A stretch of 64,000 bases of DNA. It comes from an uncultured bacterium (GTDB lineage: Bacteria; Patescibacteriota; Microgenomatia; Levybacterales; UBA12049). A program made the translations under genes and the position numbers. Shown piece after piece: positions 10,532 to 60,548 of this stretch; position 1 is the first letter of the stretch, and each line of letters opens with the position of its first letter. The stretch spans positions 809-64,808 of the forward strand of contig CAWGXL010000011.1 in the NCBI GenBank assembly GCA_963826535.1, written 5' to 3'. The notes under the pieces were generated by a model. The model searched no databases. It was not told the DNA's origin and worked only from the letters and a program-made list of their open reading frames with translations.

Positions 10532-10604
10532 CCACGTAACAACACTTACTTGCTCGCATGGTCTACGTCCATGCCTTCCAAGAGCGTGTGTACATGGTAA
10601 ACAT

Positions 10605-11907: not shown

Positions 11908-11948
11908 GTATACAAAGGAAAAAAAATTTATTATAATTAAAAAATATT

Positions 11949-43252: not shown

Positions 43253-43263
43253 GCTCTTAATTC

Positions 43264-43488
43264 ATGAGCGTTCTTGCAAATATCAAAGTAAAAGATATGG
43301 AGCGTATATTGCTAAGCAAAGGGTTTCAGCCTCATGCATCAAAAGGGAGTCATAAAACATTCAAGCACCTAGATGGTAGAAGAACGACACTTGCCTATCA
43401 TCCGGGAAATATCCCCAAACCAATTGTTGCAAAGATACTTAAACAATCCGGTATAACAAGAGATGAACTTCAAAAATATCGTAGATAA
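43264..43488 (+). CDS. hicA: HicA-family mRNA interferase toxin.
   Basis: 74 aa. ...GFQPHASKGSHKTFKH...PKPIVAKILKQSGI HicA/YcfA motif. Confidence 0.7.
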   Translation: MSVLANIKVKDMERILLSKGFQPHASKGSHKTFKHLDGRRTTLAYHPGNIPKPIVAKILKQSGITRDELQKYRR

Positions 43489-44494: not shown

Positions 44495-44812
44495 TTACCT
44501 ATTCCGCAATGCTATTAAAAAACTGCCAAGTAGATATAGAAGCAAAGCTTGCCAGAAAAGGATTGATAAAAGAGTTGTGCTTAGAAAAATCACGACAATT
44601 TCCCGCTTAAAGCCTTGAGGAGAAACAAACAAGGCAGCAATTCTTCCGACAATAAATAAAATGGCAAGACCCATGACCGGAGAAAATACAACTGGTAATA
44701 AAATAGGACGGCGTACCATACCTTTTACATATTTAGAGGGATAGAATGTCAAGCCAATTAATGTTTTTGTCCAGATATAGGCAACAAAAATAAAAAAAGT
44801 GTGCTTCTTCAT
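44495..44812 (-). CDS. Small membrane protein, possibly part of an anti-sigma module.
   Basis: 105 aa with three hydrophobic segments. Start overlaps the upstream gene by 4 nt. Confidence 0.3.
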   Translation of the reverse strand: MKKHTFFIFVAYIWTKTLIGLTFYPSKYVKGMVRRPILLPVVFSPVMGLAILFIVGRIAALFVSPQGFKREIVVIFLSTTLLSILFWQALLLYLLGSFLIALRNR

Positions 44813-45039
44813 TTTGGTCCGCCGAAAATTCTTAATATTAAATTATCATAAGGCGTACCGATAAATCCGTGAAAGATAAATGAAAATATGAAAGCCAGCG
44901 GGATAAGTATTCTCCACGGATGATTACCAAGCCAAATAGTTACAGTTTTGAATACGCGGGGGAAAACCATATCATTCAAAACCTTTTCTTGATCTTTGGC
45001 TCTTTTCTGAAGCTGCAATAAAAATTCACGCTCGTTCAT
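44809..45039 (-). CDS. Small single-pass membrane protein. Candidate anti-sigma factor.
   Basis: 76 aa with one TM. Overlaps the stop of the ECF sigma gene. Confidence 0.35.
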   Translation of the reverse strand: MNEREFLLQLQKRAKDQEKVLNDMVFPRVFKTVTIWLGNHPWRILIPLAFIFSFIFHGFIGTPYDNLILRIFGGPK

Positions 45040-45559
45040 AAGCTATTTGAAAACGCCGGCGGGCTCGGAAAAGTAGAGATTCGGTTGCTTTAAAAGACAG
45101 GTTGAATATAGGTGCCAATTCCTTTACGGGTATTTTGTCTTCGTAATGAAGGTGTAGAATTTTTTGATACTGAAGCGAAATTTCCAGAAATGCTTTTTCA
45201 ATTTTATCACGGATTTTGTCTTTCTCAAATTGAAACTCCGGCTGTTGAATTTCAGCGGCGATAATTTCCAAAAACGGCGCCTGAGATAAAAGAACGGATT
45301 TTATTTTTCTCTTTCTGTAAAAGTCAGCGACTTTATTGTGGGCAATTTTAAAAAGCCAAGTAGTTACACTACTTTTTTCCTGAAATAGATGCAACTCGTC
45401 AATAGCTGCGAAAAATATATCATTTAAGACTTCTTCAGCGTCTTCTTTGCATGGAAGTTTTCTACGTAAAAACGAAAGTAATTTCGGAGAATTAATTTTA
45501 TAAAACGCGACCACCGCATCACTATCTCCCTGCAATATCCTGTCTAATATACTAGTCAT
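45026..45559 (-). CDS. ECF-type RNA polymerase sigma factor (sigma-70 family).
   Basis: Region 2 (EEVLNDIFFAAIDELHLFQEKSSVTTWLFKIAHNKVADFYRKRK) and region 4 (IPVKELAPIFNLSFKATESLLFRARRRF). Confidence 0.75.
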   Translation of the reverse strand: MTSILDRILQGDSDAVVAFYKINSPKLLSFLRRKLPCKEDAEEVLNDIFFAAIDELHLFQEKSSVTTWLFKIAHNKVADFYRKRKIKSVLLSQAPFLEIIAAEIQQPEFQFEKDKIRDKIEKAFLEISLQYQKILHLHYEDKIPVKELAPIFNLSFKATESLLFRARRRFQIAYERA

Positions 45560-45630: not shown

Positions 45631-46788
45631 ATGAATTTACGTAATTTTGTTGATGTTAGTTCAAGACGAGCCGCACTGGAAGAAAATTTGGGCATAGAAC
45701 TTTCCAATATTGGTAAATATACATTAGACGCGCAACAAGCTTCCACAAAAAATTGCGAAAATATGATTGGCATAGCACAGGTTCCGCTTGGTATTGCCGG
45801 GCCACTACAATTAACAAGTAATTTGCAAAAAAGAGAATATTTTCTCCCTTTGGCCACGACAGAAGGAGCTTTAATTGCATCTGTTAATCGGGGATGCAGT
45901 GCTATTGCTCAGGCTGGGGGGGTAAATGTGATAAGCGAGAAAATTGGCATGACCCGGGCGCCTGTTTTTGTGGTTGAAACTATTACTCAAGGCAAGGCGT
46001 TTATTCACTGGATTGAAAATAATTTTGCCAAGATTAAAGAAATTACAGAGTCTACTTCAGATCACTTGGAGCTTCTCAAAATTACCCCTCACTTGATGGG
46101 CAGAAATGTTTATTTGCGTTTTCATTTTGATACTCAGGATGCAATGGGTATGAATATGGCAACAATCGCAGTTGCTAAAGCAGTCCCATTTATAGAAGAG
46201 CAAACTTCTGCGCGTTGTGTGGCTATATCCGGAAATATGTGTGTTGATAAAAAGCCAAATTATCTTAATTTCATTGAAGGCAGGGGGTATAAAGTATGGG
46301 CCGAGACGGTATTGCCGGACGATATAGTGGCAACTGTTTTAAAAACTAAAATAGAAAAAATTATTGAAGTGGCTCAAAGAAAATTACTGTATGGATCTAT
46401 AATGGCAGGTAGTATTGGAGCAAACGCTCATTTTGCCAATATACTTGCAGCTCTTTTTATAGCGACCGGTCAGGATGTGGCACATGTAAGCGAGTGCTCG
46501 ATGGGAGTGACAACTTTTGAAAAAGTGGAAAATGGATTATATATGTCAGTGTATCTGCCGGATTTAGTTGTCGGGACTGTGGGAGGAGGAACACAGCTTG
46601 CTACTCAAAAAGAAGCGTTGAGTATAATGGGATTGAATCCTAAAAAAGAAAAAAATACAGGACGGAAACTTGCCGAGTTAACTGCAGGAGCTGTGATGGC
46701 TGGAGAATTATCGCTCATGGCATCTTTGGCTGCAAATACAGTAGCCCGCGCACACCTGAAATATGCAAGAGGAGTTCAAGAGGCTTAA
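45631..46788 (+). CDS. hmgA: Class I-type HMG-CoA reductase, soluble short form.
   Basis: ATTEGALIASVNRGCSAI and FDTQDAMGMNM class I signatures. 385 aa. Confidence 0.9.
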   Translation: MNLRNFVDVSSRRAALEENLGIELSNIGKYTLDAQQASTKNCENMIGIAQVPLGIAGPLQLTSNLQKREYFLPLATTEGALIASVNRGCSAIAQAGGVNVISEKIGMTRAPVFVVETITQGKAFIHWIENNFAKIKEITESTSDHLELLKITPHLMGRNVYLRFHFDTQDAMGMNMATIAVAKAVPFIEEQTSARCVAISGNMCVDKKPNYLNFIEGRGYKVWAETVLPDDIVATVLKTKIEKIIEVAQRKLLYGSIMAGSIGANAHFANILAALFIATGQDVAHVSECSMGVTTFEKVENGLYMSVYLPDLVVGTVGGGTQLATQKEALSIMGLNPKKEKNTGRKLAELTAGAVMAGELSLMASLAANTVARAHLKYARGVQEA

Positions 46789-46791
46789 ATT

Positions 46792-47829
46792 ATGAGTGGA
46801 ATTGTTGGATACGGCGTATACATACCAATTTATAGGATTAAAGTATCAGAAATTGCTGATGTCTGGAAAAAGAATCCGGCTGAGGTAACTGAGGGTTTAC
46901 GGGTTAGTGAAAAAGCTGTGCCGGCATTTGATGAGGATGCAGTATCTATGGGAGTTGAAGCTGGAAAAGCTGCATTACATATGGCTGGCATATCGGAAAA
47001 AGAGATTGGTAGTGTATACGTTGGCTCAGAGAGTCATCCCTACGCAGTAAATCCAACATCAACAACAGTTGCAGAATACTTGGGAGTTGGCAATGACTAT
47101 TTTGCAGCTGATCTGGAATTTGCGTGCAAAGCTGCAACTGCGGGAATGCAAATTACGCTTGGACTTTTGGACAGCAATAAAATTCCTTACGGGCTAGTAA
47201 TCGGCAGCGATACTGCACAGAGTAAACCCAGAGACGCGTTGGAATATACAGCCGCAAGTGCTTCTGTTGCCTATATTTTAGGAAATAAAAATGCGGATTT
47301 AATTGCGGAAGTTCTGGCAACATCTTCTTTCTCTTCAGATACTGCGGACTTTTGGAGACGCGACGGACAGAAGTATCCGTCACATTTTGGTAGATTTTCC
47401 GGTGAGCCGGCATATTTCAATCATGTGATCAGTGAGGGCAGAAAATTGCTGGAGAAAAGCGGAATGAAACCCAATGATTTTGCGTATTGCGTATTCCACA
47501 TGCCGAACGGTAAATTCCCAAGAATAGCAGCTAAGAAATTAGGATTTACGTCCGAACAACTAGAGCCTTCGCTTATGGTGGACACAATCGGTAATCCCTA
47601 CACTGCATCCTCGCTTTTAGGACTGGCTGCAGTTCTTGATCAAGCCCGTGCAGGACAAAAAATATTTTTTGTTTCGTATGGTTCAGGTGCAGGCTCAGAC
47701 GGGTTTATTTTTCAAACAACTAAAAAATTAAGCGAAAAACAAAAAATTACTACGCCTGTCAGACAGCGAAATGAAAAGAAAATTTATATTTCGTATCCCG
47801 AATATTTAAAACATATGCACATTATATGA
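46792..47829 (+). CDS. HMG-CoA synthase (archaeal/bacterial type).
   Basis: MSGIVGYGVYIPIYRI...DEDAVSMGVEA.... 345 aa thiolase-fold condensing enzyme. Adjacent to thiolase and DUF35. Confidence 0.85.
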   Translation: MSGIVGYGVYIPIYRIKVSEIADVWKKNPAEVTEGLRVSEKAVPAFDEDAVSMGVEAGKAALHMAGISEKEIGSVYVGSESHPYAVNPTSTTVAEYLGVGNDYFAADLEFACKAATAGMQITLGLLDSNKIPYGLVIGSDTAQSKPRDALEYTAASASVAYILGNKNADLIAEVLATSSFSSDTADFWRRDGQKYPSHFGRFSGEPAYFNHVISEGRKLLEKSGMKPNDFAYCVFHMPNGKFPRIAAKKLGFTSEQLEPSLMVDTIGNPYTASSLLGLAAVLDQARAGQKIFFVSYGSGAGSDGFIFQTTKKLSEKQKITTPVRQRNEKKIYISYPEYLKHMHII

Positions 47830-48980
47830 AAATTTCTGTACTTGGCGCGTCGACAACAAAATTTGGTGAACTGTGGAATACTTCACCGCGAGCACTTGCC
47901 CGGGAGGTTTTTTCTCAAGCACTAGCAGCATCAAATTTGAAACCAACAAACATTGATGCATTATTTGTGGGCAATATGCTCTCGTGTGTTTTAGGAAACC
48001 AGGCAAATTTAGGATCGTTGTTTGCTGAAGAATTGGGGGTTTTTGTACCCGCATTCAGACTTGAGGGAGCCTGCGCATCCGGAGGACTAGCCCTGCATAA
48101 TGCTATAAATAGTGTACTCGCAGGACAATATAGGACAGTTCTTGTATTGGGAATCGAAAAAATGACTGACCATACACAGGACGAGATAACAAGTGCGTTA
48201 ATGGCTGCCGGTTCTGATGAAGAAAGGGTGGCAGGAGTTACATTCCCAGGTCTCTATGCGCTGATGGCAAGAGCATATATGCAGGAATATCATATTGGCG
48301 AAGAGCTATTGGCTTCTGTATCGGTAAAAAATCATTATCACGGGAGCCTTAATCCAAAAGCACAATTTCCATCTCCAATTACTATTGAGGCTGTAATGAA
48401 GAGCGGGAAAATTGCCGATCCCATAAAACTTCTTGACTGCTCCCCTATCTCAGACGGGGCGTCGGCAATTATCATTACCGGAGATGAAAGTTTAAAAAAA
48501 CGTCAAACAAAACCCATACATATTACTGCAAGTGAAGTTGCAACTGATAGTCTGAGTATAACTGACCGCAAGTCATTTACCAGTTTAGCAAGCGTAGTTA
48601 ATGCCGCGAGCAAAGCATATAAAAAAACCGGTTTAAAACCTGTTGATATAGACGTTGCAGAAATACATGATTGCTTCTCAATAGCGGAAGTTATTGCCAC
48701 CGAAGATCTTGGGTTTTCGGATAGGGGAAAAGGCGCGGCTGATATTGCTGCCGGAAAGCATACATTAAATTTAGGAAAAGTTATCACCAATTCTTCCGGA
48801 GGGCTGAAAGCTTGCGGTCATCCGGTCGGAGCAACCGGTATAAAGCAAATCGTTGAGATAGTTGAACAGTTACGCGGAGAAGCAGGCAAAAGACAAGTAA
48901 AAAACGCGAGGATTGGTCTTACGCATAATGTCGGAGGTAGCGGAGCAATTGCTGTAATTCATATTTTACAATCATTATGA
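47826..48980 (+). CDS. Acetoacetyl-CoA thiolase (archaeal-type thiolase).
   Basis: ...EGACASGGLALHNA... active-site Cys region. C-terminal GHPVGATG. 384 aa. Confidence 0.85.
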   Translation: MKISVLGASTTKFGELWNTSPRALAREVFSQALAASNLKPTNIDALFVGNMLSCVLGNQANLGSLFAEELGVFVPAFRLEGACASGGLALHNAINSVLAGQYRTVLVLGIEKMTDHTQDEITSALMAAGSDEERVAGVTFPGLYALMARAYMQEYHIGEELLASVSVKNHYHGSLNPKAQFPSPITIEAVMKSGKIADPIKLLDCSPISDGASAIIITGDESLKKRQTKPIHITASEVATDSLSITDRKSFTSLASVVNAASKAYKKTGLKPVDIDVAEIHDCFSIAEVIATEDLGFSDRGKGAADIAAGKHTLNLGKVITNSSGGLKACGHPVGATGIKQIVEIVEQLRGEAGKRQVKNARIGLTHNVGGSGAIAVIHILQSL

Positions 48981-49276
48981 CAACACCAGTAAAGATACAC
49001 AGACGCCAAAAGGAAATAGCTGCAGCGATTGGCAGAAAGGGGAAAATCGTTGTCTGGACGATGATCAGAGTCGCGGCCAAAGCATTTAACGCACAGGCTC
49101 CGTACCCGGTGGTTATTGTAAAACTTGAAAATGGGGGGCAAGTTATTGGTCAATTGGTTGATTGGAAACAAGAAGAATTACAATCAGGACAAGATGTTAT
49201 TTCCGTACTAAGACGGTCCTGTATAGAAGATAATGAAAGCGTCATTAGCTATACTATTAAATTTAAACCAATATGA
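48977..49276 (+). CDS. DUF35 OB-fold protein (thiolase/HMGCS scaffold partner). Short form lacking the Zn ribbon.
   Basis: KIVVWTMIRVAAKAFNAQAPYPVVIVKLENGGQVIGQLVD matches the DUF35 OB-fold core. Position immediately after the thiolase gene. Confidence 0.55.
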   Translation: MTTPVKIHRRQKEIAAAIGRKGKIVVWTMIRVAAKAFNAQAPYPVVIVKLENGGQVIGQLVDWKQEELQSGQDVISVLRRSCIEDNESVISYTIKFKPI

Positions 49277-50343
49277 AAAAGATTCGTGTTTCTGCGCCTG
49301 GCAAGATAATTCTTTTGGGTGAACATGCAGTTGTTTATGGTAAACCTGCAATAATTGCCTCGGTTGCGAAGCGCTGTTTTATTACACTTACACCACGACA
49401 GGATAAAAAAATTGAAATTATTTCGGAAAATCTTAATGTTTCGGAAAAATTGGATGAGAAAAAAATAATTAAAAATATAGAAACAGCAAACAAAAATTGG
49501 CAGAGATATATAAAGACTAATGACGTTAATTTGTTAAAATCAATAACTGAAAAGCCACTGGCTTACGCAGAAATTGTTATCGGAGAAACGCTTAAATATT
49601 TTAATAAAAAATTATCATCTGGTTTTAAGCTATCTATAAATTCAGAGATTCCAATAGGGTCAGGAATGGGGTCATCGGCTGCTTTAGCTGTTTCAATCTC
49701 GGGATCTATATTGCTTTTTTTGGGCGAAAAATTTGATAAAGAGAAAATTAATGACATCGCATTTTTATCAGAACAAAAAAAACATGGGCTTCCTTCAGGC
49801 GGAGACAATAGCACATGTTGTTACGGAGGATTTGTTTGGTTCCGTAAAGAAACTCCCAATTTAAAAATTATCCAGCCCATTGCATTTAAGATAAGTCATA
49901 AGATTCAGAAAAGTTTTTTTACTGTTTTTACCGGAATACCAAATGAATCAACCGGGGAGATGGTCAGTATCCTTCGAACAATGTATCAGAAAAAACCAAA
50001 GATGTTTAATGCTATTTTTACTGACCAAGAATCACTAACCAGACAACTTCTTGATGCGTTAAAAAGTGATGACGAGGGGAAAATACTGAGCAGTATTAAG
50101 AATGGCCAAAAGAATTTGGAAAAGGTAGGCGCTGTCTCACCTATGGTAAAATCGCTTATAAATGAAATTGAGAAAAGAGAAGGGGTAGCAAAGATTTGCG
50201 GCGCTGGTGGAAGAACTAAAGGGACAGGAGTACTGCTTGTTTATCTTAAAAAAAGGAAAGAGGTAGAAACGTTGCTGCAGTCACGTAAATTTAATTTATT
50301 ACCAATTTCATTGGGGGCAGAAGGAGTGAGGGAAGAGCTATAA
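49273..50343 (+). CDS. mvk: Mevalonate kinase (GHMP kinase).
   Basis: N-terminal VSAPGKIILLGEHAVVYG. GHMP motif PIGSGMGSSAALAV. 356 aa. Confidence 0.8.
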   Translation: MKKIRVSAPGKIILLGEHAVVYGKPAIIASVAKRCFITLTPRQDKKIEIISENLNVSEKLDEKKIIKNIETANKNWQRYIKTNDVNLLKSITEKPLAYAEIVIGETLKYFNKKLSSGFKLSINSEIPIGSGMGSSAALAVSISGSILLFLGEKFDKEKINDIAFLSEQKKHGLPSGGDNSTCCYGGFVWFRKETPNLKIIQPIAFKISHKIQKSFFTVFTGIPNESTGEMVSILRTMYQKKPKMFNAIFTDQESLTRQLLDALKSDDEGKILSSIKNGQKNLEKVGAVSPMVKSLINEIEKREGVAKICGAGGRTKGTGVLLVYLKKRKEVETLLQSRKFNLLPISLGAEGVREEL

Positions 50344-51332
50344 AAAAATTAACTGTCTCAGCCCCTGGGAAATTGATGCTTCTTGGAGAACATGCTGTGG
50401 TTTATAATCACCCATGTTTAGTTACAGCAGTTGATCAACGGATGAAGGTTATTGTTGAATTACTGGATACGCGGGAATTTCAATTAGAAGCAGGAGATGT
50501 AAATGTTGTTGGTTATAAAAAACCTTTATCAGAACTCGGCCGAGGAGACATGCCAAAGGGCGCCAAGTTTGTCGAAATCGCGGTAAAAAATATTTATGAA
50601 GAGTTTAGTCTGGAAAAAGGAATAAGAGTTACAACTATATCTGAGTTTTCATCCCAGTTTGGATTTGGGTCATCGTCGGCATCAACTGTTTGTATATTAA
50701 AGGCTCTGTCGGAATTGTTTGAATTGAAACTTAGTCAAAAAGAAATTTTTGATTTTTCATTTAAAACAGTATTGGATATTCAGGGCAAAGGATCGGGATT
50801 TGACGTAGCTTCCGCAGTTTACGGTGGAACACTTTATTTTGTAACCGGTGGCAAAATCATTGAACCACTATCAATTGACAATTTGCCATTGACCATCGGC
50901 TATAGCGGCGTAAAAGCAGATACTGTTACACTTATAAATAATGTTAAAAAGTCTTTTACAAATAAGCAAGACCGGCTTACCGAGATTTATAACGGCATCG
51001 AACTTTTGGTAAATGCGGCGAAAGATAGTTTACTCTCCACCGTCATTCCCGCGAACGCGGGAATCCAGTGGAAAAAATTTGGGGAATTAATGAATAAAAA
51101 CCAAGAGTATTTACGCGAACTCGGGGTAAGTATTGAGAAATTAGATAATATGATTCAGGCAGCACTGGATGCGGGAGCCTACGGAGCAAAATTATCCGGC
51201 GCCGGCGGAGGAGACTGTATGATCGCTATAGCGCCGGAAGAAAAAAGAAAGATGGTTGAGACGGCAATTGCTAAAGTCGGGGGGGAAATTATTCATGTAA
51301 GTGCAAATGCTGAAGGAGTTAGAACTGAATGA
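50340..51332 (+). CDS. Second GHMP kinase (probable phosphomevalonate kinase). Apparently initiates at a non-canonical ATA. Carries an in-frame copy of the REP-like repeat.
   Basis: Open frame reads IKKLTVSAPGKLMLLGEHAVV before the first TTG/ATG (50373/50376). GFGSSSAS GHMP motif. The 25-mer GTCATTCCCGCGAACGCGGGAATCC at 51042-51066 encodes VIPANAGIQ. Confidence 0.65.
   Translation: MKKLTVSAPGKLMLLGEHAVVYNHPCLVTAVDQRMKVIVELLDTREFQLEAGDVNVVGYKKPLSELGRGDMPKGAKFVEIAVKNIYEEFSLEKGIRVTTISEFSSQFGFGSSSASTVCILKALSELFELKLSQKEIFDFSFKTVLDIQGKGSGFDVASAVYGGTLYFVTGGKIIEPLSIDNLPLTIGYSGVKADTVTLINNVKKSFTNKQDRLTEIYNGIELLVNAAKDSLLSTVIPANAGIQWKKFGELMNKNQEYLRELGVSIEKLDNMIQAALDAGAYGAKLSGAGGGDCMIAIAPEEKRKMVETAIAKVGGEIIHVSANAEGVRTE
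51042..51066. repeat. REP/MITE-like palindromic repeat, copy 3 (inverted), lying inside the GHMP kinase coding sequence.
   Basis: Exact reverse complement of the 25-mer at 27072-27096 and 32126-32150. Confidence 0.8.
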
Positions 51333-51343
51333 GATTTTAATAT

Positions 51344-51772
51344 ATGAAGAAATATAATACGCCCTTTTTTACATTGTATGAGAATACGTTTCTTGTTTTA
51401 ATAGAAGATCTTGGAAAAGAAAAAGCATTGAAATTATTAAATAAGATATTCGCATTAGGTTTAAAAAAAGCTTATGATGCAGCAGGATTTAAAAAAGGAG
51501 ATCCTAATAATTTTGTAAAAGTAGTTAGCACGCGAGATAAAAATGTCGGCTTAAAAGTTAAATTTCCACAAGTAACAGATGATAAGATTATTTATCAGTT
51601 TCACACAGATCCATTTCCTAGTTTAAAAGGGAAAGTTAATCCTAGCGATTTAGATGCAAGTTATATGAATTTTAAAGTTAACTATTTATTAGGAAATAAG
51701 TGGGCATATAAAACGACAAAACATATATGGAAAGGCGATAAATATACAGAGCATGTGATCGCCAAAAAATAA
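51344..51772 (+). CDS. Hypothetical protein inserted in the mevalonate operon.
   Basis: 142 aa. No recognisable motif. Confidence 0.3.
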   Translation: MKKYNTPFFTLYENTFLVLIEDLGKEKALKLLNKIFALGLKKAYDAAGFKKGDPNNFVKVVSTRDKNVGLKVKFPQVTDDKIIYQFHTDPFPSLKGKVNPSDLDASYMNFKVNYLLGNKWAYKTTKHIWKGDKYTEHVIAKK

Positions 51773-51816
51773 AAATAATTGCATAATCTTAAATTCTTTG
51801 TTATCATGTTTTTGTT

Positions 51817-52080
51817 ATGAGCAAAAAGCTTTCTCAGAAAATTTTGGAATATACTGCTATTTTTGAACCCGCAGAGGAAGGCGGTTATGTAGTAAGCGTC
51901 CCGGCTCTTCCGGGTTGCATAACTCAAGGCGAAACTTTTGAAGAAGCTGTGGCTATGATTAAAGACGCTATGCAGGGATATTTAGCAGTTTTAAAAGAAG
52001 AAGGGGAAGAAATCCCGCAAGAAAAATCAGACGTTGTTATCACCAAAGTGTCTGTCGCTAATCCTGCAGCGAATTTATAA
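51817..52080 (+). CDS. hicB: HicB-family (UPF0150) antitoxin, second copy.
   Basis: YTAIFEPAEEGGYVVSVPALPGCITQGETFEEAVAMIKDAMQ is a textbook HicB/UPF0150 sequence. Confidence 0.75.
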   Translation: MSKKLSQKILEYTAIFEPAEEGGYVVSVPALPGCITQGETFEEAVAMIKDAMQGYLAVLKEEGEEIPQEKSDVVITKVSVANPAANL

Positions 52081-52295
52081 TGGCATCCTTTAAAGCACGA
52101 GAAATCGTTAAAATTCTTCAAAAATTAGGATATATTAAAAAGCGTCAAACGGGTAGCCACATTATCATGTATAACCAACAACAAAAACAAACAATTCCGG
52201 TTCCAATGCATGCCAAAGAACTTAAAAAGGGCTTGTTAAAGGCAATAATAAAAAAAGCGGACTCAAGCGAAGAGGAGTTTATTAGACTGAAATAA
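52080..52295 (+). CDS. hicA: HicA-family toxin, second copy.
   Basis: 71 aa. REIVKILQKLGYIKKRQTGSHIIM. Start overlaps the hicB stop. Confidence 0.7.
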   Translation: MASFKAREIVKILQKLGYIKKRQTGSHIIMYNQQQKQTIPVPMHAKELKKGLLKAIIKKADSSEEEFIRLK

Positions 52296-52298
52296 ATC

Positions 52299-53279
52299 AT
52301 GATGAAAGCAACTGCAATTGCACCATCAAATATTGCATTTATAAAATATTGGGGTGTTAAAGATGAAGAGCTTCGCCTTCCGAAAAATGGCAGTATTTCC
52401 ATGAATCTTAGTAATCTCCTGACAACAACCACCGTTGAATTTAGTTCGAATTATAAAACAGACAGTATTCAGATCAACGATACACATGAAGCAAACGAAG
52501 AAACTCGTGTAATGCAATACCTTGATCGCATTAGAAATCTCGCAAAGATACAGCACAAAGCAAAAGTTGTAACAAAGAATAATTTTCCAACAGCAACCGG
52601 TCTTTCATCTTCGGCATCAGGATTTGCAGCGCTTTCCGTTGCAGGAGCAAAAGCCGCAGCACTAAATCTTTCCGAAAAAGAACAATCAATTCTCGCACGT
52701 CTTGGATCAGGATCTGCGTGTAGATCAATTCCTGATGGGTTTACTGAATGGTTGGATGGGGATACGAGTGATACATCATACGCAGTTTCATTACATCCTC
52801 CGGAATATTGGAAAATCGTAGATGTTGTAGCAGTTGTCAGTATAAATAAAAAAGAAGTAAGCTCAACAGAAGGACACAGACTAGCAACAACAAGTCCATT
52901 TTTTGACAAAAGACTAGAGCTGAACAAAGAAAAAATACGGCGAATGAAACAATATATAAAAGATAGAAACTTTACTGCATTTGGAGAACTAACAGAGGCA
53001 GAAGCACTTGAGCTTCATGCAATTTATATCACGTCTCAACCCTCATTAATTTATTTACTTCCCGGTACCCTGCGCATCATGCATGAAGTAAAGCGCTGGA
53101 GAAATGAAGGACTTGAAGTATACTTTACGCTAAATACCGGACAGGATATTCATATTATTTGCCAGAATAAAGACAGCGGGAAAGTCCAACAGCTACTTTC
53201 TCAGATTCCAGAAGTAAAACAAATTATCCCAAACTATCCAGCAATTGGTGTTCGATTAACTGACAAGCACCTTTTTTAA
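52299..53279 (+). CDS. mvd: Diphosphomevalonate decarboxylase (MVD family).
   Basis: APSNIAFIKYWG...PTATGLSSSASGFAAL MVD motifs. 326 aa. Confidence 0.85.
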   Translation: MMKATAIAPSNIAFIKYWGVKDEELRLPKNGSISMNLSNLLTTTTVEFSSNYKTDSIQINDTHEANEETRVMQYLDRIRNLAKIQHKAKVVTKNNFPTATGLSSSASGFAALSVAGAKAAALNLSEKEQSILARLGSGSACRSIPDGFTEWLDGDTSDTSYAVSLHPPEYWKIVDVVAVVSINKKEVSSTEGHRLATTSPFFDKRLELNKEKIRRMKQYIKDRNFTAFGELTEAEALELHAIYITSQPSLIYLLPGTLRIMHEVKRWRNEGLEVYFTLNTGQDIHIICQNKDSGKVQQLLSQIPEVKQIIPNYPAIGVRLTDKHLF

Positions 53280-54415
53280 TGCAAATCAAAGCCGCTACAA
53301 ATTTACCCGCAATTATAAAAAAACTTGAAGAATTAGTTTTGGCATCAACGGGCGCAGAACCATTTGAAGAAATTTTGAAACTTATTTATGCAAAATTGTA
53401 TGCTGAGAAAATTGCAAAAAAGACACTTCCGGTTCAAATTCTTTTTGAAGGGGCCAAAAAAGAATGGCCCGGAATGTTTGACAAAAAAGACACTATTGAA
53501 ATCTCACCTAGTAATCTTACATTGTGTACAGAGCTTCTATCGAAAGTTACATTGTATAAATCTGATTTAGCAATTATTGACACAGCATTTGAATATTTAT
53601 TACCCAAAGCTGCCAAAGGAAGCCGGGGGCAATATTTTACTCCGCGTCATATTGTTGTTGAAGTTGTTAAAATTTTAAATCCTAAAAAGAATGACTATAT
53701 TCTGGATCCGGCTTGCGGATCGGGAGGATTTTTACTTCATGCTGCTAAATATGTTAATAATGCAAAAAGGGTTTATGGTATTGATTTTGATAAGCGCATG
53801 GTAAAAATTGCTCAAGCAATGATGCTTATCGCAGGATTTGGACAAGCGAATATTTATAAAGCGGATTCACTCTCCTCTACTGTTGTATTGGGTAAACAAT
53901 TATTTGAGGTTATCTGTACGAATCCCCCATTTGGCGGAGAAATTAAAGATGGAGAAGTTTTGCAGAGGTATGAACTTGCAAAAGACAATCGCGGGAAATT
54001 GCGTAGCATAGTTCAACGGCATGTTCTCTTTATAGAAAAGATTATAAATTTACTCAATCCCGGGGGACGGGCGGCAATTGTTGTGCCCCAAGGGATATTA
54101 AATAATACTAACTTTGCTTACATACGAGAATGGATATTTAAGAAAGCGAGAATATTAGGAGTGATTGGTTTAGATGCATTCACATTTAAGCCGCATACAA
54201 ATGTAAAAACAAGTTTATTATTTCTGCAGAAATGGTCCGGTAAAGAACTTTCAGATTACAAAATATTTATGGCAGTATCTAAGAAAGGCGGCAAGAATCT
54301 CTCAGGAGGATATGTTTATAAAACCCAAAACGGAAGGCAGATAATAGACCATGATTTACCGGAAATTGCAGAGAAGTTTATAAAATTCATAAAAAATGAG
54401 AAGCTTAATTTCTAA
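53279..54415 (+). CDS. hsdM: Type I restriction-modification N6-adenine DNA methyltransferase subunit (HsdM-like, short form).
   Basis: GQYFTPRHIV, LDPACGSGGFLL (motif I) and NPPFGG (motif IV). Start overlaps the mvd stop (TAATG). Confidence 0.8.
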   Translation: MQIKAATNLPAIIKKLEELVLASTGAEPFEEILKLIYAKLYAEKIAKKTLPVQILFEGAKKEWPGMFDKKDTIEISPSNLTLCTELLSKVTLYKSDLAIIDTAFEYLLPKAAKGSRGQYFTPRHIVVEVVKILNPKKNDYILDPACGSGGFLLHAAKYVNNAKRVYGIDFDKRMVKIAQAMMLIAGFGQANIYKADSLSSTVVLGKQLFEVICTNPPFGGEIKDGEVLQRYELAKDNRGKLRSIVQRHVLFIEKIINLLNPGGRAAIVVPQGILNNTNFAYIREWIFKKARILGVIGLDAFTFKPHTNVKTSLLFLQKWSGKELSDYKIFMAVSKKGGKNLSGGYVYKTQNGRQIIDHDLPEIAEKFIKFIKNEKLNF

Positions 54416-54417
54416 GT

Positions 54418-55758
54418 ATGCTTGATTCATTTGTTAACCATTCCGATATCATAGCCGCAAACCGACTGGATGCGGAGTATTTCCAACCAAAGTTTCTAGA
54501 TTTACGGGAAAAATTAAAGAGCGGGAAGTATAGAAAACTGCACGAGTTATGCGAATTTATCCGGACAGGACCTGCGGGCTCAGTTCTGCCAGCGTCTAAA
54601 TATACATCATCCGGTATAAAAGTTTATAGACCGTCAAATTTAAACGGCTGGACTTGCGATAACTCTAATATTGTTTATGTATCTGAAGAGTATTGTAGTA
54701 AACAAAATTTAAAACTGTATAGCAACGGTGATATTTTAGTGACAAGAATTGGAGATATAAAATTTGCAATTATTCAGGAAACTAAACTCTTTGCAATTAG
54801 CCCAAATTTATTTGTAATTAGAACAAAGAAAGATTTACTTGATCCGTATTTTCTATTAGTATTTCTCAATACATGGTTTGGAGCTGATCAAATTCTACGC
54901 GGACAAAAAATTGTTTCTTTAGCGTCTGTGGATATTGGACAGGTTGCTAATATGCTAGTGCCGTTAATACCTGTTGATGCGCAAATAAAAATAGGCAAAT
55001 TAGTAAAAAATGGGTTAAAAAAATTGCGGCAAGCAAAGGAGATACATTCTCAAACAGAAAGTGCTCTTGTGCAAATTATTGGTCACCAAAAAAGTAGCAA
55101 GGATCAATCGTCAAACATAATAAACTTTTCCGAATTACTAAAAGTACGCCGGGCAGATGCTGAATATTTCTTGGCGCAAAAATTCATAGGTCAAGAGTCA
55201 ATAAAATGGATGCAAATTGGTGAAATTTCACGTGTTATGCGTGGAATTGAGCCCGGAAGAAAAGCTTACCAAAAAAACGGAAAATTATTTATGAGGGTCA
55301 GCAATATAGATAAATACGGATTATTGGAAAAAAGCCAAAAATATATTAGTGAAGTTTTATATAAAAAACTTTACAAAAAATATCAACCACAAATTAGTGA
55401 GATACTGCTCGTAAAAGATGGAAAACCTGGTGTTGCTTTTGTTGTTAAAAAATCTATAAAGGGAATAATCTCAGATGGAATTGTGCGGCTACAGCTTAAT
55501 ACTCTATTTGCCCCAGAATATGTGAGTCTTTGTATAAATTCTCCTATTTGTCAGCAACAGATCCTAGCTGATATAGATGGATCACTTGTGCCGCATTGGA
55601 AGGTTGAGCAAATAAAGAATTTAAAAATTCCAATTGTTTCTGCAAATATCCAAGCAGGGCTTGTTAGAGTCATGAAAAAATCCGGTATACTTTTTCAAAA
55701 AGCGGAGGAAAATTTATTACTTGCAAAATACCAAATAATTCTCTTTATGCCAAAATAA
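54418..55758 (+). CDS. hsdS: Type I restriction-modification specificity subunit HsdS with two target-recognition domains.
   Basis: Duplicated NRLDAEYF / RRADAEYF N-terminal-of-TRD motifs. Conserved PLIPVDAQIKIGKLV and IPIVSANIQAGLV spacer regions. Confidence 0.8.
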   Translation: MLDSFVNHSDIIAANRLDAEYFQPKFLDLREKLKSGKYRKLHELCEFIRTGPAGSVLPASKYTSSGIKVYRPSNLNGWTCDNSNIVYVSEEYCSKQNLKLYSNGDILVTRIGDIKFAIIQETKLFAISPNLFVIRTKKDLLDPYFLLVFLNTWFGADQILRGQKIVSLASVDIGQVANMLVPLIPVDAQIKIGKLVKNGLKKLRQAKEIHSQTESALVQIIGHQKSSKDQSSNIINFSELLKVRRADAEYFLAQKFIGQESIKWMQIGEISRVMRGIEPGRKAYQKNGKLFMRVSNIDKYGLLEKSQKYISEVLYKKLYKKYQPQISEILLVKDGKPGVAFVVKKSIKGIISDGIVRLQLNTLFAPEYVSLCINSPICQQQILADIDGSLVPHWKVEQIKNLKIPIVSANIQAGLVRVMKKSGILFQKAEENLLLAKYQIILFMPK

Positions 55759-55918: not shown

Positions 55919-56440
55919 TTAGAAGCCCAAATTCTTGAGGATATTTTTTAATTCATCGATTAATTTCTCAAGGGCATTGCGCTCTTCAGCTATTTTTTCT
56001 TTGATTTCCTTGATTTGTTTTTTCTTTTCTGCAGTTTTGCTTGCTTTATCATTTGAAGTATTCGTATCAACGTTTACAGTAGTATTAATATTGTTATTGT
56101 TTTTGTTTGGCTCATTTGTAGGACCGGAATTGTTATTGGAATTATTAATATTCACCTTTGTATTGCCGTCTTCTGACTGCACATTCAAATTACCGTTCTC
56201 GCTTGTAGTGCATTTTCCATTTACACAGACTGTGCTTTTTCCATTGTTGGAATTAGTTGTTGTGCATGTTCCATTTTGGCAAATCGTGTTATTACCGGTA
56301 TTGGTTTCAACATTTACATTGGTCTTGGAGTTGCCCTCATTATTTGAGACATCAATAGTCGTATTAGCAGTTGCAACTTGCGGTATTAAAGTTACTGTAA
56401 TTAAACAAATTATCATGCATATAGAAGTGCGATATTTCAT
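55919..56440 (-). CDS. Secreted Asn/Thr-rich repetitive protein with a C-terminal coiled coil.
   Basis: Signal peptide. NxT/NGxC repeats. KKKQIKEIKEKIAEERNALEKLIDELKNILKNL coiled coil. Confidence 0.4.
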   Translation of the reverse strand: MKYRTSICMIICLITVTLIPQVATANTTIDVSNNEGNSKTNVNVETNTGNNTICQNGTCTTTNSNNGKSTVCVNGKCTTSENGNLNVQSEDGNTKVNINNSNNNSGPTNEPNKNNNNINTTVNVDTNTSNDKASKTAEKKKQIKEIKEKIAEERNALEKLIDELKNILKNLGF

Positions 56441-56503
56441 AGAAGATAAAGAGTCCTAATAATATAACACAAAATAAAAATATTGCAACTTGATAAGTAG
56501 ATT

Positions 56504-57523
56504 TTAAAGCTCACCTTTGCTTGCCTGGTAGATTTTTTCAGCACGGGATAAGAATGCTTTTTGCGCGGTATCAATATTTTTTGAATCTCCTTTCCATATT
56601 TCAAGCGCTTCGTCTTGTAGAGCGCGTCCATATGAGGCAGTTAATCTAGAAAATTTATTTTGCTCCTGATTATTTCTTTTATTAATCTCATTTAAATGTT
56701 GCGTAGCAAGTTCGGCGCTTTGTCCGCCAGACAGAAATGCGATAACGGGAATATCAGGTATTACCGCACTTTTAAGTATCTCGATCGTTGATTGAGCGAC
56801 CGTCTGTACATCTGCCTGAATATCAGCATTACTACCTGAAGTTATCATGTTTGGTTTTAGAATTATTCCAGATAGTAATACGTGATAGTCGGCAAGTCTG
56901 CTAAAGACAACAAATAATACTGACTTCGTAACCCTAATGCAGTCTTCCAAAGTGTGTGTGCCTTCCATCAAAACTTCGGGTTCAACAATTGGTACCAGAT
57001 CGTTTTCCTGGCAAAGGGCTGCATAAAGGGCAAGATCTGAGGCATTTCTTTCAATAGCTGTTGTGCTTGGATGTGTTCCGTTATCATTTGAAATAGTATA
57101 TACAGCCCTCCACTTTGCAAATCTTGCTCCCAACTTTCTGTATTCTGCAAGCCGGTTACCCAAATCATCGAAACCTTGTGTAAACGTGTCCGGTTCAAGT
57201 CCTGGCAGTAATACTGTTCCCCTATCAACTTTTATTCCGGGTAAAATACCTAGATTCTCAAGAAATTGCGGAAAAGGCGTACCGTCGTCTGCTGACTGTC
57301 TGAATGTTTCATCGTATAAGATAACACCGCTTATAAATTGTTCAATTCCGGGAGTAGTAAACAAAAGTTGACGATAAATGCAATTCATTTCCGGTGTTGA
57401 CTCGAGTCCAATTTTTGCAAATTTTTTTTTGATACTACCAGTGCTCTCGTCTGCGGCCAGGATAGTCTTTGAAACTACATTTCTTGCAGTTGTAGTAAGC
57501 TGTTGTGCGTTCATGAGGTTCAT
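56504..57523 (-). CDS. fba: Class I fructose-bisphosphate aldolase.
   Basis: ILAADESTGS, GILPGIKVDRG, IVEPEVL and FLSGGQS motifs. Start moved to MNLMNAQQ. Confidence 0.85.
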   Translation of the reverse strand: MNLMNAQQLTTTARNVVSKTILAADESTGSIKKKFAKIGLESTPEMNCIYRQLLFTTPGIEQFISGVILYDETFRQSADDGTPFPQFLENLGILPGIKVDRGTVLLPGLEPDTFTQGFDDLGNRLAEYRKLGARFAKWRAVYTISNDNGTHPSTTAIERNASDLALYAALCQENDLVPIVEPEVLMEGTHTLEDCIRVTKSVLFVVFSRLADYHVLLSGIILKPNMITSGSNADIQADVQTVAQSTIEILKSAVIPDIPVIAFLSGGQSAELATQHLNEINKRNNQEQNKFSRLTASYGRALQDEALEIWKGDSKNIDTAQKAFLSRAEKIYQASKGEL

Positions 57524-57591
57524 TAGATGATAGCAGTTAAAATAGTAAAAATGCAAGAAGAAGCTTGTAGAAATGTAGTATAATATCAAAT

Positions 57592-58152
57592 GTGAAAAAA
57601 ACTATCAACCAAGATGCAACAGGACTTGAAGAGCAAGCTATGCTTATTGCAAGTGAAATATTCAATCTTATTAATCAATATACGCATGACAGCAATATTT
57701 CAAAGTTCTTTTTGACTGACGCTGTTGCCCGCGCGTGTTATGGATTGGCAGGAGGTTTTGCCTCAGTTATCTATAACCCTCCACTATTGCCAAAAGAAAT
57801 CAAAAATACGACTATTCTGTCGTTTGTATATGCTTTGATGACCTATGGTTTCAACATTTATTTAAAAGAACGTTCGTTGTCAACTAATGCAGCACCATAC
57901 ACTCTGCCGCGTGATCCAACTGAGATTCGCAAAATTCAGAAAAAAACACTTTCATATACCTCGCATGGCAAACTAGTATCAACGCCGCTGGCGGATAAAA
58001 TTATCAAAATTTTAACAACTAATATTAAAAACCAAATTAAAATGAACGAATTATCTTTGAAAGGTCACAGATTGAATAAGAAAAAATTTTTTGATTATAG
58101 TAAGCTTTCGATGTATTGGGGTTATAACTTTGCCAGAGAATTATTAAACTGA
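57592..58152 (+). CDS. Hypothetical protein.
   Basis: 186 aa. No recognisable motif. Confidence 0.3.
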   Translation: MKKTINQDATGLEEQAMLIASEIFNLINQYTHDSNISKFFLTDAVARACYGLAGGFASVIYNPPLLPKEIKNTTILSFVYALMTYGFNIYLKERSLSTNAAPYTLPRDPTEIRKIQKKTLSYTSHGKLVSTPLADKIIKILTTNIKNQIKMNELSLKGHRLNKKKFFDYSKLSMYWGYNFARELLN

Positions 58153-59414: not shown

Positions 59415-59441
59415 TACCCCGTCAGCTTGCTGCAGGGTAGT

Positions 59442-60548
59442 TTATTCCACAATTTTCTCCCAGGGGAATGCGTCCCGTCCGAAGTGGCCGTAGGCTGCGG
59501 TTGAAAGATAAATAGGGCGCCGTAGATTAAGACCATCCAAAATCCCTTCCACTGAAGTATCCAGAAGTTTTAGTGTAAAGTCTTTTATTGCTTTGCTTGT
59601 TGTCTTGGCAGTGCCGAAAGTTTCAACCTCTTGCATAATTGGTTTGCGTGCGCCGATAAAATAGGCAAGTCTAACTTCTGCCCTATCCGCTAGCCGTTGT
59701 GCTACAATATTTTTTGCGAGATAACGAGCAGCATATGCGCCGCTTCGGTCGACTTTAGTTGGGTCTTTCCCGCTAAAAGCACCTCCTCCCACTCGAGCAT
59801 ATCCGCCGTATGTATCAACAATAATTTTGCGTCCTGTCACACCGGAGTCAGAGGCAGGTCCACCAATATGCCAAACTCCTGTGCCATTTACAATAAGGTC
59901 TTTGGGCGAGATTGAAAAACCGGAGGCAGCAAGAATAGGCTTGACCACGGTTTTGAAGATATCTTTTTTTACCTGTTCAAGTTTAGTTTTTTCATCATGG
60001 GGCACTGCAATAACAACAGTTGCTATTTTATATGGTTTTCCATTTTTGTATTCTACAGTCACCTGAGTCTTGCCATCCGGACGAAGAAAGGCAAGAATTT
60101 TTTCCTCACGTACCCTATCTATCTCTTTTGCTAATTTATGCGCAAGTAAGATAGGAAGCGGCATAAGTTCCGGAGTCTCATTACAGGCAAATCCAAACAT
60201 CATGCCCTGGTCTCCGGCACCTCTTTTCTTGTTGACGCCGACCGCAATTTCCGGTGATTGTTCATGTACATAAACATTGATTGTAGAATTGTATGAGAAA
60301 TTAAATTTACCGTTTAGGTATCCTAGTCTGCGGATTTGCTCACGCGCTATCTTTTCAAAATCAACTTTTGCCGCTGCACTAACCTCACCTGCAATCATTA
60401 CGCGATTGAATGTAACAATAGTTTCAACAGCAACGTGCCCGTTGGGATCTTGAGCGAGAACCGTATCAACAATAGCGTCGCTTATCTGGTCGCATATTTT
60501 ATCAGGATGACCCGCACAAACTGATTCGGACGTAAACCTATTTTTCAT
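59442..60548 (-). CDS. metK: S-adenosylmethionine synthetase.
   Basis: ESVCAGHPDKICDQISDAIVD and GGGAFSGKDPTKVDRSGAY motifs. 368 aa. Confidence 0.95.
   Translation of the reverse strand: MKNRFTSESVCAGHPDKICDQISDAIVDTVLAQDPNGHVAVETIVTFNRVMIAGEVSAAAKVDFEKIAREQIRRLGYLNGKFNFSYNSTINVYVHEQSPEIAVGVNKKRGAGDQGMMFGFACNETPELMPLPILLAHKLAKEIDRVREEKILAFLRPDGKTQVTVEYKNGKPYKIATVVIAVPHDEKTKLEQVKKDIFKTVVKPILAASGFSISPKDLIVNGTGVWHIGGPASDSGVTGRKIIVDTYGGYARVGGGAFSGKDPTKVDRSGAYAARYLAKNIVAQRLADRAEVRLAYFIGARKPIMQEVETFGTAKTTSKAIKDFTLKLLDTSVEGILDGLNLRRPIYLSTAAYGHFGRDAFPWEKIVE

Follow-up and report, generated by a model that had tools for sequence, protein, structure and literature searches.

A Levybacteria-type mevalonate operon with a local hicBA-bearing insertion and a downstream methylase–specificity pair that is most likely old

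The stretch of DNA analysed here (64 kb, below called the window) contains at positions 45631-55758 a tightly packed row of 12 genes (Table 1). The coordinates of all open reading frames were verified. The genes encode, in this order, class I HMG-CoA reductase (HMGR), HMG-CoA synthase (HMGCS), thiolase, a DUF35 protein consisting of the OB domain only, two GHMP kinases, a 142-aa protein, HicB, HicA, mevalonate (di)phosphate decarboxylase (MVD), a methylase (M) and a specificity subunit (S). The order and co-orientation given in the original prediction were thereby confirmed, with 12 of 12 frames on the plus strand. The source had been described as a CPR-like bacterium, and this agrees with the closest homologues, which are named Candidatus Levybacteria or Patescibacteria, with the contig size of 894 kb, and with a 16S gene that has no adjacent 23S gene.

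Table 1. Genes of the locus and its conserved neighbours, with positions in the window.
Feature	Position	Strand	Evidence and remarks
Small ORF, conserved alongside sigma factor gene	44495-44812		
Small ORF, conserved alongside sigma factor gene	44809-45039		
ECF-type sigma-70 factor	45026..45559	-	Sigma70_r2 and r4_2 domains; conserved divergent neighbour of operon
HMG-CoA reductase, class I	45631..46788	+	PF00368 (HMG-CoA_red) 5.5e-120
HMG-CoA synthase, archaeal type	46792..47829	+	NF003274 482 bits; TIGR00748 'archaeal' 434 bits, cut-off 353
Acetoacetyl-CoA thiolase, archaeal-type	47826..48980	+	NF004720 461 bits, cut-off 420
DUF35 scaffold protein	48977..49276	+	PF01796 (OB) only; 99 aa
GHMP kinase 1	49273..50343	+	TIGR00549 189 bits; no GHMP_C hit
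GHMP kinase 2	50340..51332	+	NF003036 196 bits; TIGR00549 181 bits
142-aa stand-alone V4R/Bet3/H-NOX-fold protein	51344..51772	+	DPANN-archaeal type; inserted gene
HicB-like antitoxin	51817..52080	+	87 aa; PF15919 49 bits, residues 12-71; N-terminal domain only
HicA toxin	52080..52295	+	PF07927 74 bits
Mevalonate (di)phosphate decarboxylase (MVD)	52299..53279	+	TIGR01240 284 bits, cut-off 171
Short-form gamma-class N6-adenine DNA methyltransferase (M)	53279..54415	+	PF02384 (N6_Mtase) 1.7e-40; no nuclease domain
Specificity subunit (S), two target-recognition domains	54418..55758	+	PF01420 two stretches; PADLOC Specificity_I
Asn-rich low-complexity protein	55919..56440	-	Hydrophobic N-terminus; no Pfam hit; conserved downstream neighbour
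S-adenosylmethionine synthetase (MetK)	59442..60548	-	Three S-AdoMet_synt domains; far end of conserved syntenic block

HMGR is separated from HMGCS by 3 nt, and 4-nt overlaps join HMGCS to thiolase, thiolase to DUF35 and DUF35 to kinase 1. For kinase 2, the start codon is ATA at 50340, which overlaps the stop of kinase 1 (ATAA), and not TTG 50373; relatives show ATGA at the corresponding site, and their proteins share the N-terminus KK(I/L)TVSAPGK. An 11-nt gap lies between kinase 2 and the 142-aa gene and one of 44 nt precedes hicB; hicB and hicA overlap by 1 nt, and MVD follows hicA after 3 nt. MVD ends 1 nt into M, its stop and the start of M having TAATG in common exactly as had been noted, and S begins 2 nt after M. 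Since scans for promoters and terminators performed no better than on shuffled sequence, it is the spacing of the genes that suggests co-transcription.

The surroundings are conserved as well. The sigma factor gene and both small ORFs are found upstream of HMGR in eight loci of relatives (L001-L007 and L014), and in L054 the sigma factor is visible at the locus edge. On the other side, the Asn-rich protein is syntenic in L011, L012, L026 and L027, and metK in L009, L011 and L026. The Asn-rich protein, a low-complexity sequence with no Pfam hit, is probably secreted and is not a nuclease.

Family models support the archaeal type of the thiolase/HMGCS/DUF35 trio. HMGR belongs to class I, with 420 bits on TIGR00533 vs. 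50 bits on the class II model TIGR00532. The DUF35 protein has one Cys in its 99 residues and hence no zinc ribbon. The two kinases share 26% identity; both exceed the cut-off of the mevalonate kinase model TIGR00549, and neither passes a phosphomevalonate kinase model. Kinase 2 is the more mevalonate-kinase-like of the two, reaching 122 bits against mevalonate kinases in the PDB. Kinase 1 also has mevalonate kinases as its best solved-structure matches, at no more than 80 bits, and is probably the phosphomevalonate kinase. The best solved structure for MVD is 6n0x with 285 bits, compared with 128-199 bits for classical diphosphomevalonate decarboxylases; we take 6n0x, together with PMC9254496, to be the phosphomevalonate decarboxylase of Anaerolinea (A. 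thermophila). The substrates of the kinases and the decarboxylase are predictions, isopentenyl (di)phosphate is the expected product, and the classical route is therefore putative.

The original prediction regarded a short DUF35 without a zinc ribbon as unusual; in this lineage neither such a protein nor the archaeal-style operon is out of the ordinary. Mevalonate (MVA) gene clusters have already been published for the majority of Microgenomates (Hoshino & Gaucher 2018, PMC6107057), and the operon turned up in every Levybacteria locus examined. It is the standard conserved cluster of Candidatus Levybacteria (Microgenomates), already known. The same gene order together with a DUF35 of 99-103 aa occurs in L001-L009, L014 and L054, and L011 holds part of the cluster; a ribbon-less protein of this length is the lineage norm, found in all relatives examined. 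MVD itself is 66-74% identical to Levybacteria MVDs. A search for IPK and IDI, proposed with the original prediction, found neither within the 64-kb window, and no IDI-like NUDIX gene or prenyl synthase adjoins the operon here, although relatives have them.

The interruption of the operon by hicBA was correctly recognised. The 142-aa gene and hicBA together make up about 1 kb at a junction where relatives run kinase 2 directly into MVD: the two genes abut in 12 of 14 lineages, the exceptions being the window and L054, whose insert is a different one (a HAD hydrolase and a 133-aa ORF), and the 142-aa gene with hicBA is missing from this junction in all 13 other lineages. A profile scan of the relatives' loci gave no match to HicB or HicA in or next to their MVA clusters; the sole HicB hit among these loci lies ~7 kb from MVD in an archaeal locus (L023). 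The 142-aa protein has no Pfam hit, and a structural match to V4R-type domains was found. Its homologues form 26 clusters at 55-68% identity; the few with a taxon name are listed as Diapherotrites, Micrarchaeota or archaeon, and each of the three genomic contexts inspected is archaeal. It is a rare family with its only close relatives in DPANN archaea. This restriction to DPANN, together with a GC content of 28% for the gene vs. 38.5% for the window, points to an inter-domain transfer. The signature of lateral transfer is carried by the 142-aa gene and hicBA only, and the two form a one-off insertion in this genome.

The methylase had been labelled a type I hsdM, a label that does not fit. The 378-aa protein scores 57 bits on the HsdM model TIGR00497 (cut-off 243) and lacks an HsdM_N domain. 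It belongs to another family, that of the 645-aa HSDR_N_2-methylase fusions common in CPR bacteria, as a short form without the nuclease. In the long form, an HSDR_N_2 domain with a D...EVK motif is fused to the methylase; M corresponds to about the C-terminal 450 residues, its residues 2-378 aligning to residues 195-646 of a 648-aa long form with 48% identity. Likewise, the best PADLOC model, PDLC03034, matches in its C-terminal part only. The catalytic motifs are intact, with DPACGSGGF (motif I) and NPPFGG (motif IV) invariant in 22 orthologues, and M is predicted to methylate DNA. Because MVD ends 1 nt into M, there is no upstream coding space for a nuclease domain, and neither the window nor any of the short-form loci contains a split-off nuclease domain or a long-form accessory gene.

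The absence of hsdR from the 64-kb window, as originally noted, was confirmed; the only ORF of at least 750 aa in it is a P-type ATPase. The relatives' loci were read for about 10 kb on each side, and no HsdR was found within ~10 kb in the seven that hold M with S; a candidate R gene in L009 was rejected, as it is an M23 peptidase. An assignment of the pair to MADS was rejected too: M scores 227 vs. 720 on the MAD2 model NF047738, over the C-terminal part of the model only, S scores 112 vs. 400 on the MAD5 model NF047740, over most of its length, and no other mad genes occur nearby.

The two target-recognition domains (TRDs) of S are about 27% alike and are separated by helical spacers. Five orthologues can be aligned with S from end to end. 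Mean pairwise identity reaches 57% in TRD1 and 64% in TRD2, but only 40% in the central helices and 29% in the C-terminal one; the degree of identity in the TRDs follows that in M. In type I systems, TRDs normally turn over and the conserved regions stay, so the pattern here is the opposite. It shows a conserved target, which is not the same as an absence of restriction. No SSR tracts were found.

The short-form M is carried by ten loci (the window, L009-L012, L026-L029 and L054). In a neighbour-joining tree with midpoint rooting, the short forms make up a single clade of 35 clusters, apart from the long forms. MVD lies 0-3.6 kb upstream of M in all eight short-form loci whose sequence reaches upstream. 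Beyond the window, M-S follows MVD in seven loci of at least six lineages (L009/L010, L011, L012, L027, L029 and L054), with M at 54-75% identity, and the downstream synteny comprises the Asn-rich protein, a 186-aa protein and metK. In no other carrier is M-S accompanied by hicBA or the 142-aa gene, and close relatives of M-S in viruses were not found. The pair had been read as a sign of a mobile history; its position after MVD in at least six lineages, the shared downstream synteny and the conserved TRDs speak against this. Most likely M-S is an old, vertically inherited solitary methylase and not a mobile rider. The proposed transcriptional fusion with the MVA operon is plausible in this genome and in L009, where no spacer is present. 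It does not apply to every carrier: an MVD-M spacer with a shared promoter-like motif occurs in L011 and L012, and in L026/L027 a divergent dus gene lies upstream of M.

We favour, with moderate confidence, the explanation that the locus is an ancestral, vertically inherited Levybacteria-like MVA operon with two add-ons of different age. Thiolase, HMGCS and the OB-only DUF35, followed by HMGR, would produce mevalonate, which the two GHMP kinases and the decarboxylase would convert to isopentenyl (di)phosphate. The genes are translationally coupled, and their transcription probably starts in the 71-nt divergent region between HMGR and the ECF sigma factor gene. The younger add-on would be a recent, genome-specific insertion of ~1 kb at the kinase-2/MVD junction, bringing in a DPANN-derived V4R/Bet3-fold gene and a minimal hicB-hicA pair; because it kept orientation and tight spacing, MVD may still be expressed by read-through. 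The older one would be M and S, which lack the PD-ExK domain of the 645-aa CPR relatives and have kept their place after MVD across a whole subclade of Levybacteria. We infer that they form an M2S1-type complex which methylates one conserved bipartite motif and is solitary rather than part of a restriction system. Loss of the MVD-M spacer in this genome would allow M-S to be read through from the MVA operon.

It is alternatively conceivable, though unlikely, that M-S provides the modification in an active restriction-modification system with its nuclease elsewhere in the genome, i.e., a split type I or type IIB-like defence. Its nearest relatives are nuclease-methylase fusions filed by PADLOC as restriction-modification components, M and S weakly match the MADS models MAD2 and MAD5, and most of the 894-kb genome lies outside the 64-kb window. 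One study reportedly found CPR bacteria to rely on non-CRISPR defence, which we also count for this alternative. However, neither the window nor the seven relatives' loci with M and S contain a nuclease, helicase or long-form accessory gene within ~10 kb, the M-S locus is fixed and syntenic, and the TRDs are conserved where housekeeping enzymes are 55-80% identical, the opposite of the TRD turnover usual in defence systems.

Still less probable, in our estimate, is a recruitment of the 142-aa protein to the pathway, where it would bind or sense isoprenoid intermediates rather than be a passenger. V4R, Bet3 and H-NOX folds do bind hydrophobic small molecules, such as phenols (PoxR/MopR) and palmitate (Bet3), and the gene is co-oriented within the operon, 11 nt after kinase 2. 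Its DPANN homologues, however, are stand-alone proteins whose gene neighbourhoods are unrelated and contain no MVA genes, the window's is the only Levybacteria operon that has it, and no ligand is predicted. That the whole block, or hicBA and M-S together, came as one mobile or laterally transferred cassette is highly improbable and largely refuted by synteny. In its favour, the add-ons lie on either side of MVD, the composition of the 142-aa gene is foreign, and in relatives the MVD junctions have taken up insertions several times (DUF559, aminotransferase, dus, UDG, HAD hydrolase). Against it, every other M-S carrier lacks hicBA and the 142-aa gene, M-S shares its downstream synteny with metK, MVD is a normal Levybacteria orthologue, and flanking direct repeats, an integrase, a transposase and viral copies were not found.

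The reading of an ancestral operon with two add-ons may be taken one step further, although only tentatively and with less than even confidence: a Levybacteria subclade could have domesticated a restriction-type enzyme, making it a lineage-wide solitary M+S methylase whose bipartite target is fixed and which has long remained at the end of the essential isoprenoid operon and near metK, in some genomes co-transcribed with that operon. Separately, a DPANN V4R/Bet3-like ligand-binding gene would have crossed domains into the operon. If this is true, M-S could serve CPR bacteria as an epigenetic or housekeeping methylase; if solitary, it offers a tractable case of a restriction-type system turned lineage-wide methylase in tiny genomes, with a motif that long-read metagenomes already available could reveal directly. 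Toxin-antitoxin insertions as such are commonplace. The 142-aa gene, DPANN-type and 68% identical yet located in a CPR housekeeping operon, is a data point for exchange between CPR and DPANN, two radiations of ultra-small prokaryotes that share habitats.

Compared with known systems, the operon resembles the published CPR/Microgenomates cluster (PMC6107057) in its archaeal-type thiolase and HMGCS, class I HMGR, two GHMP kinases and decarboxylase, all clustered, and differs in the 1-kb insertion before MVD. Its trio of adjacent, translationally coupled genes (4-nt overlaps) belongs to the same families as the archaeal thiolase/HMGCS/DUF35 channelling complex, where DUF35 has an N-terminal zinc ribbon and an OB domain; here it is OB only, lineage-wide. 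The HicA and HicB domains in adjacent, overlapping genes are those of type II HicAB toxin-antitoxins. The pair nevertheless stands in the order hicB then hicA, inside a biosynthetic operon, and the 87-aa HicB has no recognisable DNA-binding (RHH/HTH) domain, a domain that is typical and not strictly defining.

The best solved-structure match of the methylase is a type I M2S1 methyltransferase (PDB 5ybb), with which it shares a gamma-class methylase and a separate S with two TRDs and coiled-coil spacers. Type I restriction-modification is set apart by the sub-cut-off HsdM score, the missing HsdM_N, the absence of HsdR nearby and the inverted conservation of S. The CPR fusion + S systems (PDLC03034) are closer, with 48% identity across M and 33% across S and a similar location in housekeeping operons with overlapping codons. 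They are MADS MAD2/MAD5-like, with an architecture like type IIB BcgI/BsaXI; in the present pair the N-terminal PD-ExK domain and the accessory genes of 236 and 152 aa are missing. Dam and CcrM are solitary (orphan) DNA methyltransferases. Although M-S differs from them in its two subunits and presumably bipartite motif, and any regulatory role of M-S would be putative, it resembles them in having no cognate nuclease nearby, a fixed locus, lineage-wide conservation and a conserved target recognition.

The original prediction described an archaeal-style mevalonate (MVA) operon that is broken by hicBA, fused to an orphan hsdM-hsdS pair and suggestive of a mobile or lateral history. The observation is correct. 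Its interpretation is partly right and is wrong in three respects, namely the standing of the operon and its DUF35 as oddities, the identity of HsdM, and mobility. ORF listing and profile searches confirmed the gene order on the plus strand, as well as the tight spacing, with TAATG common to the genes of mevalonate (di)phosphate decarboxylase (MVD) and the methylase (M). Promoter and terminator scans were uninformative, with counts equal to those of shuffled sequence.

Genes of the mevalonate operon and of its downstream methylase pair, with positions in the window
Feature	Coordinates	Strand	Basis
HMGR class I	45631-46788	+	ORF listing + profile search
Archaeal-type HMGCS	46792-47829	+	ORF listing + profile search
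Archaeal-type thiolase	47826-48980	+	ORF listing + profile search
DUF35, OB domain only, 99 aa	48977-49276	+	ORF listing + profile search
GHMP kinase 1	49273-50343	+	ORF listing + profile search
GHMP kinase 2	50340/50373-51332	+	ORF listing + profile search
142-aa ORF, without Pfam match	51344-51772	+	ORF listing + profile search
HicB	51817-52080	+	ORF listing + profile search
HicA	52080-52295	+	ORF listing + profile search
MVD	52299-53279	+	ORF listing + profile search
N6-adenine methylase (M)	53279-54415	+	ORF listing + profile search
S subunit, two TRDs	54418-55758	+	ORF listing + profile search

The nearest MVDs (66–74% identity) bear the names Candidatus Levybacteria or Patescibacteria, in agreement with a CPR host; the MVD, M and 142-aa proteins occur once each in the protein collection, all on an 894-kb contig. 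In the homologous loci L001–L009, L014 and L054, a divergent sigma-70 gene is followed by HMGR, HMGCS, thiolase, DUF35 (99–103 aa), kinase 1, kinase 2 and MVD, and parts of this cluster are found in unchanged order in L011 and in shorter fragments. The archaeal-style operon, including the archaeal-type trio of HMGCS, thiolase and DUF35, is thus real but not unusual, being already known and the norm of the lineage. Canonical DUF35 proteins combine a zinc ribbon with an OB fold (PMC12960953), whereas that of the window has the OB domain only; this ribbon-less form, like its small size, turned out to be a lineage trait. The sigma factor is of the ECF type and lies with two small ORFs (76 and 105 aa) at 44495–45559 on the minus strand, divergent from HMGR across a 71-nt spacer. 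This trio is kept upstream of the operon in most Levybacteria loci and could regulate it (sigma/anti-sigma). Elsewhere in the window, the 16S rRNA gene at 3322–4927 (+) measures 1606 nt against a 1533-position model and may carry an insertion; neither an adjoining 23S gene nor any tRNA gene in the whole 64 kb was found.

By family model, both kinases qualify as MVK and neither as PMK. Kinase 2 is the more MVK-like of the two, and its counterpart in Chloroflexi loci adjoins the decarboxylase. The decarboxylase passes the MVD model, its best solved relative being 6n0x (285 bits vs. 128–199 bits for classical DMDs), which we take to be the phosphomevalonate decarboxylase of Anaerolinea thermophila. 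A structure of the A. thermophila enzyme is available (PMC9254496). No IDI-like NUDIX, IPK, UPPS or polyprenyl synthase gene was found in the window; in relatives, NUDIX and prenyl transferase genes adjoin MVD.

The start of kinase 2 deserves separate mention. The kinase-1/kinase-2 overlap is ATAA in the window vs. ATGA in all relatives, where the protein begins with MKK(I/L)TVSAPGK, and the downstream codons are the same, so that kinase 2 either starts at the mutated ATA codon or must reinitiate. The change keeps the kinase-1 stop; in this stretch (50338–50378) the conserved N-terminal KKLTVSAPGK precedes the first canonical start (TTG 50373). The ATA codon may mean that translation begins at a non-canonical codon or reinitiates, that the gene is weakened, or that the sequence contains an error.

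The toxin-antitoxin interruption of the operon is genuine, since kinase 2 abuts MVD in 12 of 14 lineages: eleven of these have the two genes overlapping or 1–19 nt apart, and the distance is 66 nt in L011, where the spacer (3601–3668) is a tandem TTTTTCG repeat of about four copies. Only the window and L054 have an interrupted junction, with different genes in each: the 142-aa ORF plus hicBA (~966 bp) in the former, a HAD hydrolase plus a 133-aa ORF in the latter. The 133-aa ORF shows no similarity to the 142-aa protein and was rejected as its homologue. Neither flanking repeats nor mobility genes were seen at the insertion in the window, the surroundings of 51333–52298 showing short chance-level repeats only. 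The in-operon hicBA is a minimal pair, its HicB having the N-terminal domain only; a TTGCAT-N17-TATCAT motif precedes hicB at 51781–51809. A second hicB-hicA pair (HicB-like 92 aa, HicA 74 aa) is located at 42974–43488 (+), 8 kb upstream of the operon, and the two HicB proteins share only 31% identity.

Homologues of the 142-aa ORF form only 26 clusters in 5.8 billion proteins (55–68% identity), and among 1.84 billion representatives a profile search gave a family of only 76 members. Those of the 26 clusters that have names belong to Diapherotrites, Micrarchaeota or "archaeon". In three cases the gene neighbourhood of the homologue is clearly archaeal (tRNA-intron endonuclease, ERCC4, GatB-family amidotransferase subunit), and each time the homologue is on its own, with no MVA or hic genes around it. 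The GC content of the ORF is 28% vs. 38.5% for the window. We read this gene as an inter-domain transfer from DPANN archaea to a CPR genome; a phage origin was rejected, as no viral relative was found. As hydrophobic ligands are bound by this fold, a functional connection with isoprenoids is conceivable, though unsupported.

The methylase is not a bona fide HsdM, contrary to the original proposal: it scores 57 bits against a cut-off of 243 in the HsdM model. It also fails the MAD2 model (227 vs. 720, a partial match), as S fails MAD5 (112 vs. 400). The homologues of M occur in two forms, a short one of 360–400 aa at 53–75% identity and many long ones of ~645 aa with an extra HSDR_N_2 domain at the N-terminus. 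In L045, a long-form locus adjoining ftsZ, the order is lexA, the RM fusion, a 236-aa gene, S and a 152-aa gene, and the fusion carries a D...EVK nuclease motif at its N-terminus. The window M aligns with residues 195–646 of this protein (48% identity) and matches only the C-terminal part of the best PADLOC model, PDLC03034 (672 positions), which makes it a nuclease-less version of the long-form family. Its catalytic motifs are invariant, and the window S is 33% identical to that of L045 over the full length. The L045 system (7382–12500) directly follows ftsA-ftsZ-lexA with overlapping codons and precedes ileS, being another restriction-type module inside a housekeeping gene string; neither of its small accessory proteins is matched by Pfam or PADLOC.

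The best reading of M-S is a predicted solitary M+S methylase, old and vertically inherited. A distant nuclease partner elsewhere in the genome is possible, most of the genome lying outside the 64-kb window; against it, neither a nuclease nor a helicase, nor a split-off nuclease domain, nor the accessory genes of the long form (236 aa, 152 aa) were found in the window or near any short-form locus, and the absence of R from the window is as originally claimed. A helicase-nuclease at the window edge (66–1673, +; UvrD_C and PD-(D/E)XK, AddB-like) is of repair type and unrelated to M-S. In L009/L010 a 995-aa gene follows S; it was rejected as the missing R subunit, since it encodes an M23 peptidase that also has an Ig-like domain. 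An AhdI-like arrangement, with M-S convergent to a C-protein/REase operon, was likewise rejected: the convergent ORF 55919–56440 encodes an Asn-rich low-complexity protein, probably secreted, and the 64-aa ORF 56437–56631 overlaps the 3′ end of a class I aldolase gene. Phase variation and a phage origin fail as well, since M and S are without SSR tracts and viral relatives of M are at most 36% identical.

Nor does M-S testify to mobility; it is a conserved resident with syntenic downstream genes. A short-form M follows MVD in L009/L010 (8-nt gap), L012 (~40 nt) and L011 (0.3 kb), with genes in between in L029 (UDG), L054 (UDG plus one small ORF on the reverse strand) and L027 (DUF559, aminotransferase, dus); L026 and L028, like L027, have a divergent dus gene ahead of the same M, but in these two the sequence stops short of MVD. 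The UDG-family genes (L029 2037–2585; L054 9255–9722) are orthologous (76–79% identity), and MVD-UDG-M-S may be the older arrangement. Downstream, the loci share an N-rich protein (−), a 186-aa protein (+) and metK (−). The 186-aa protein (window 57592–58152, +; no Pfam match) usually adjoins metK convergently and, at 76–86% identity among relatives, exceeds every MVA enzyme in conservation. Compared with L011 and L026, a class I fructose-bisphosphate aldolase (56504–57589, −) and a 303-aa ORF (58286–59197, +) are inserted in this block. A palindromic MITE-like element of ~110 nt lies just 3′ of metK (~59310–59415); a 77%-identical relative (L027 7533–7645) sits in frame in the S central linker, adding ~40 aa, and further copies occur in L026 and L027.

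In the MVD–M spacer, both L011 and L012 have a promoter-like TTGAC(A/G)-N17/18-TAGGAT motif; this spacer is lost in the window and L009, so the "fusion" with the MVA operon is a derived state in some genomes. M-S in the window probably depends on read-through from that operon.

Literature searches on orphan methylases in Patescibacteria and on MADS gave nothing useful. What is new here, modest in both cases, is the DPANN-type gene and a clade of M+S pairs that lack a nuclease, are linked to the MVA operon and have conserved TRDs. In a neighbor-joining tree, the short forms group together in a single clade (35 clusters), separate from the long forms. Six aligned S orthologues have a mean pairwise identity of 57% in TRD1 and 64% in TRD2, against 40% in the central helices and 29% in the C-terminal helix, and TRD identity tracks that of M. 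In classical type I S subunits the TRDs are variable and the spacers conserved; here the pattern is reversed, the TRDs being more conserved than the helical spacers, which argues for one retained target sequence.
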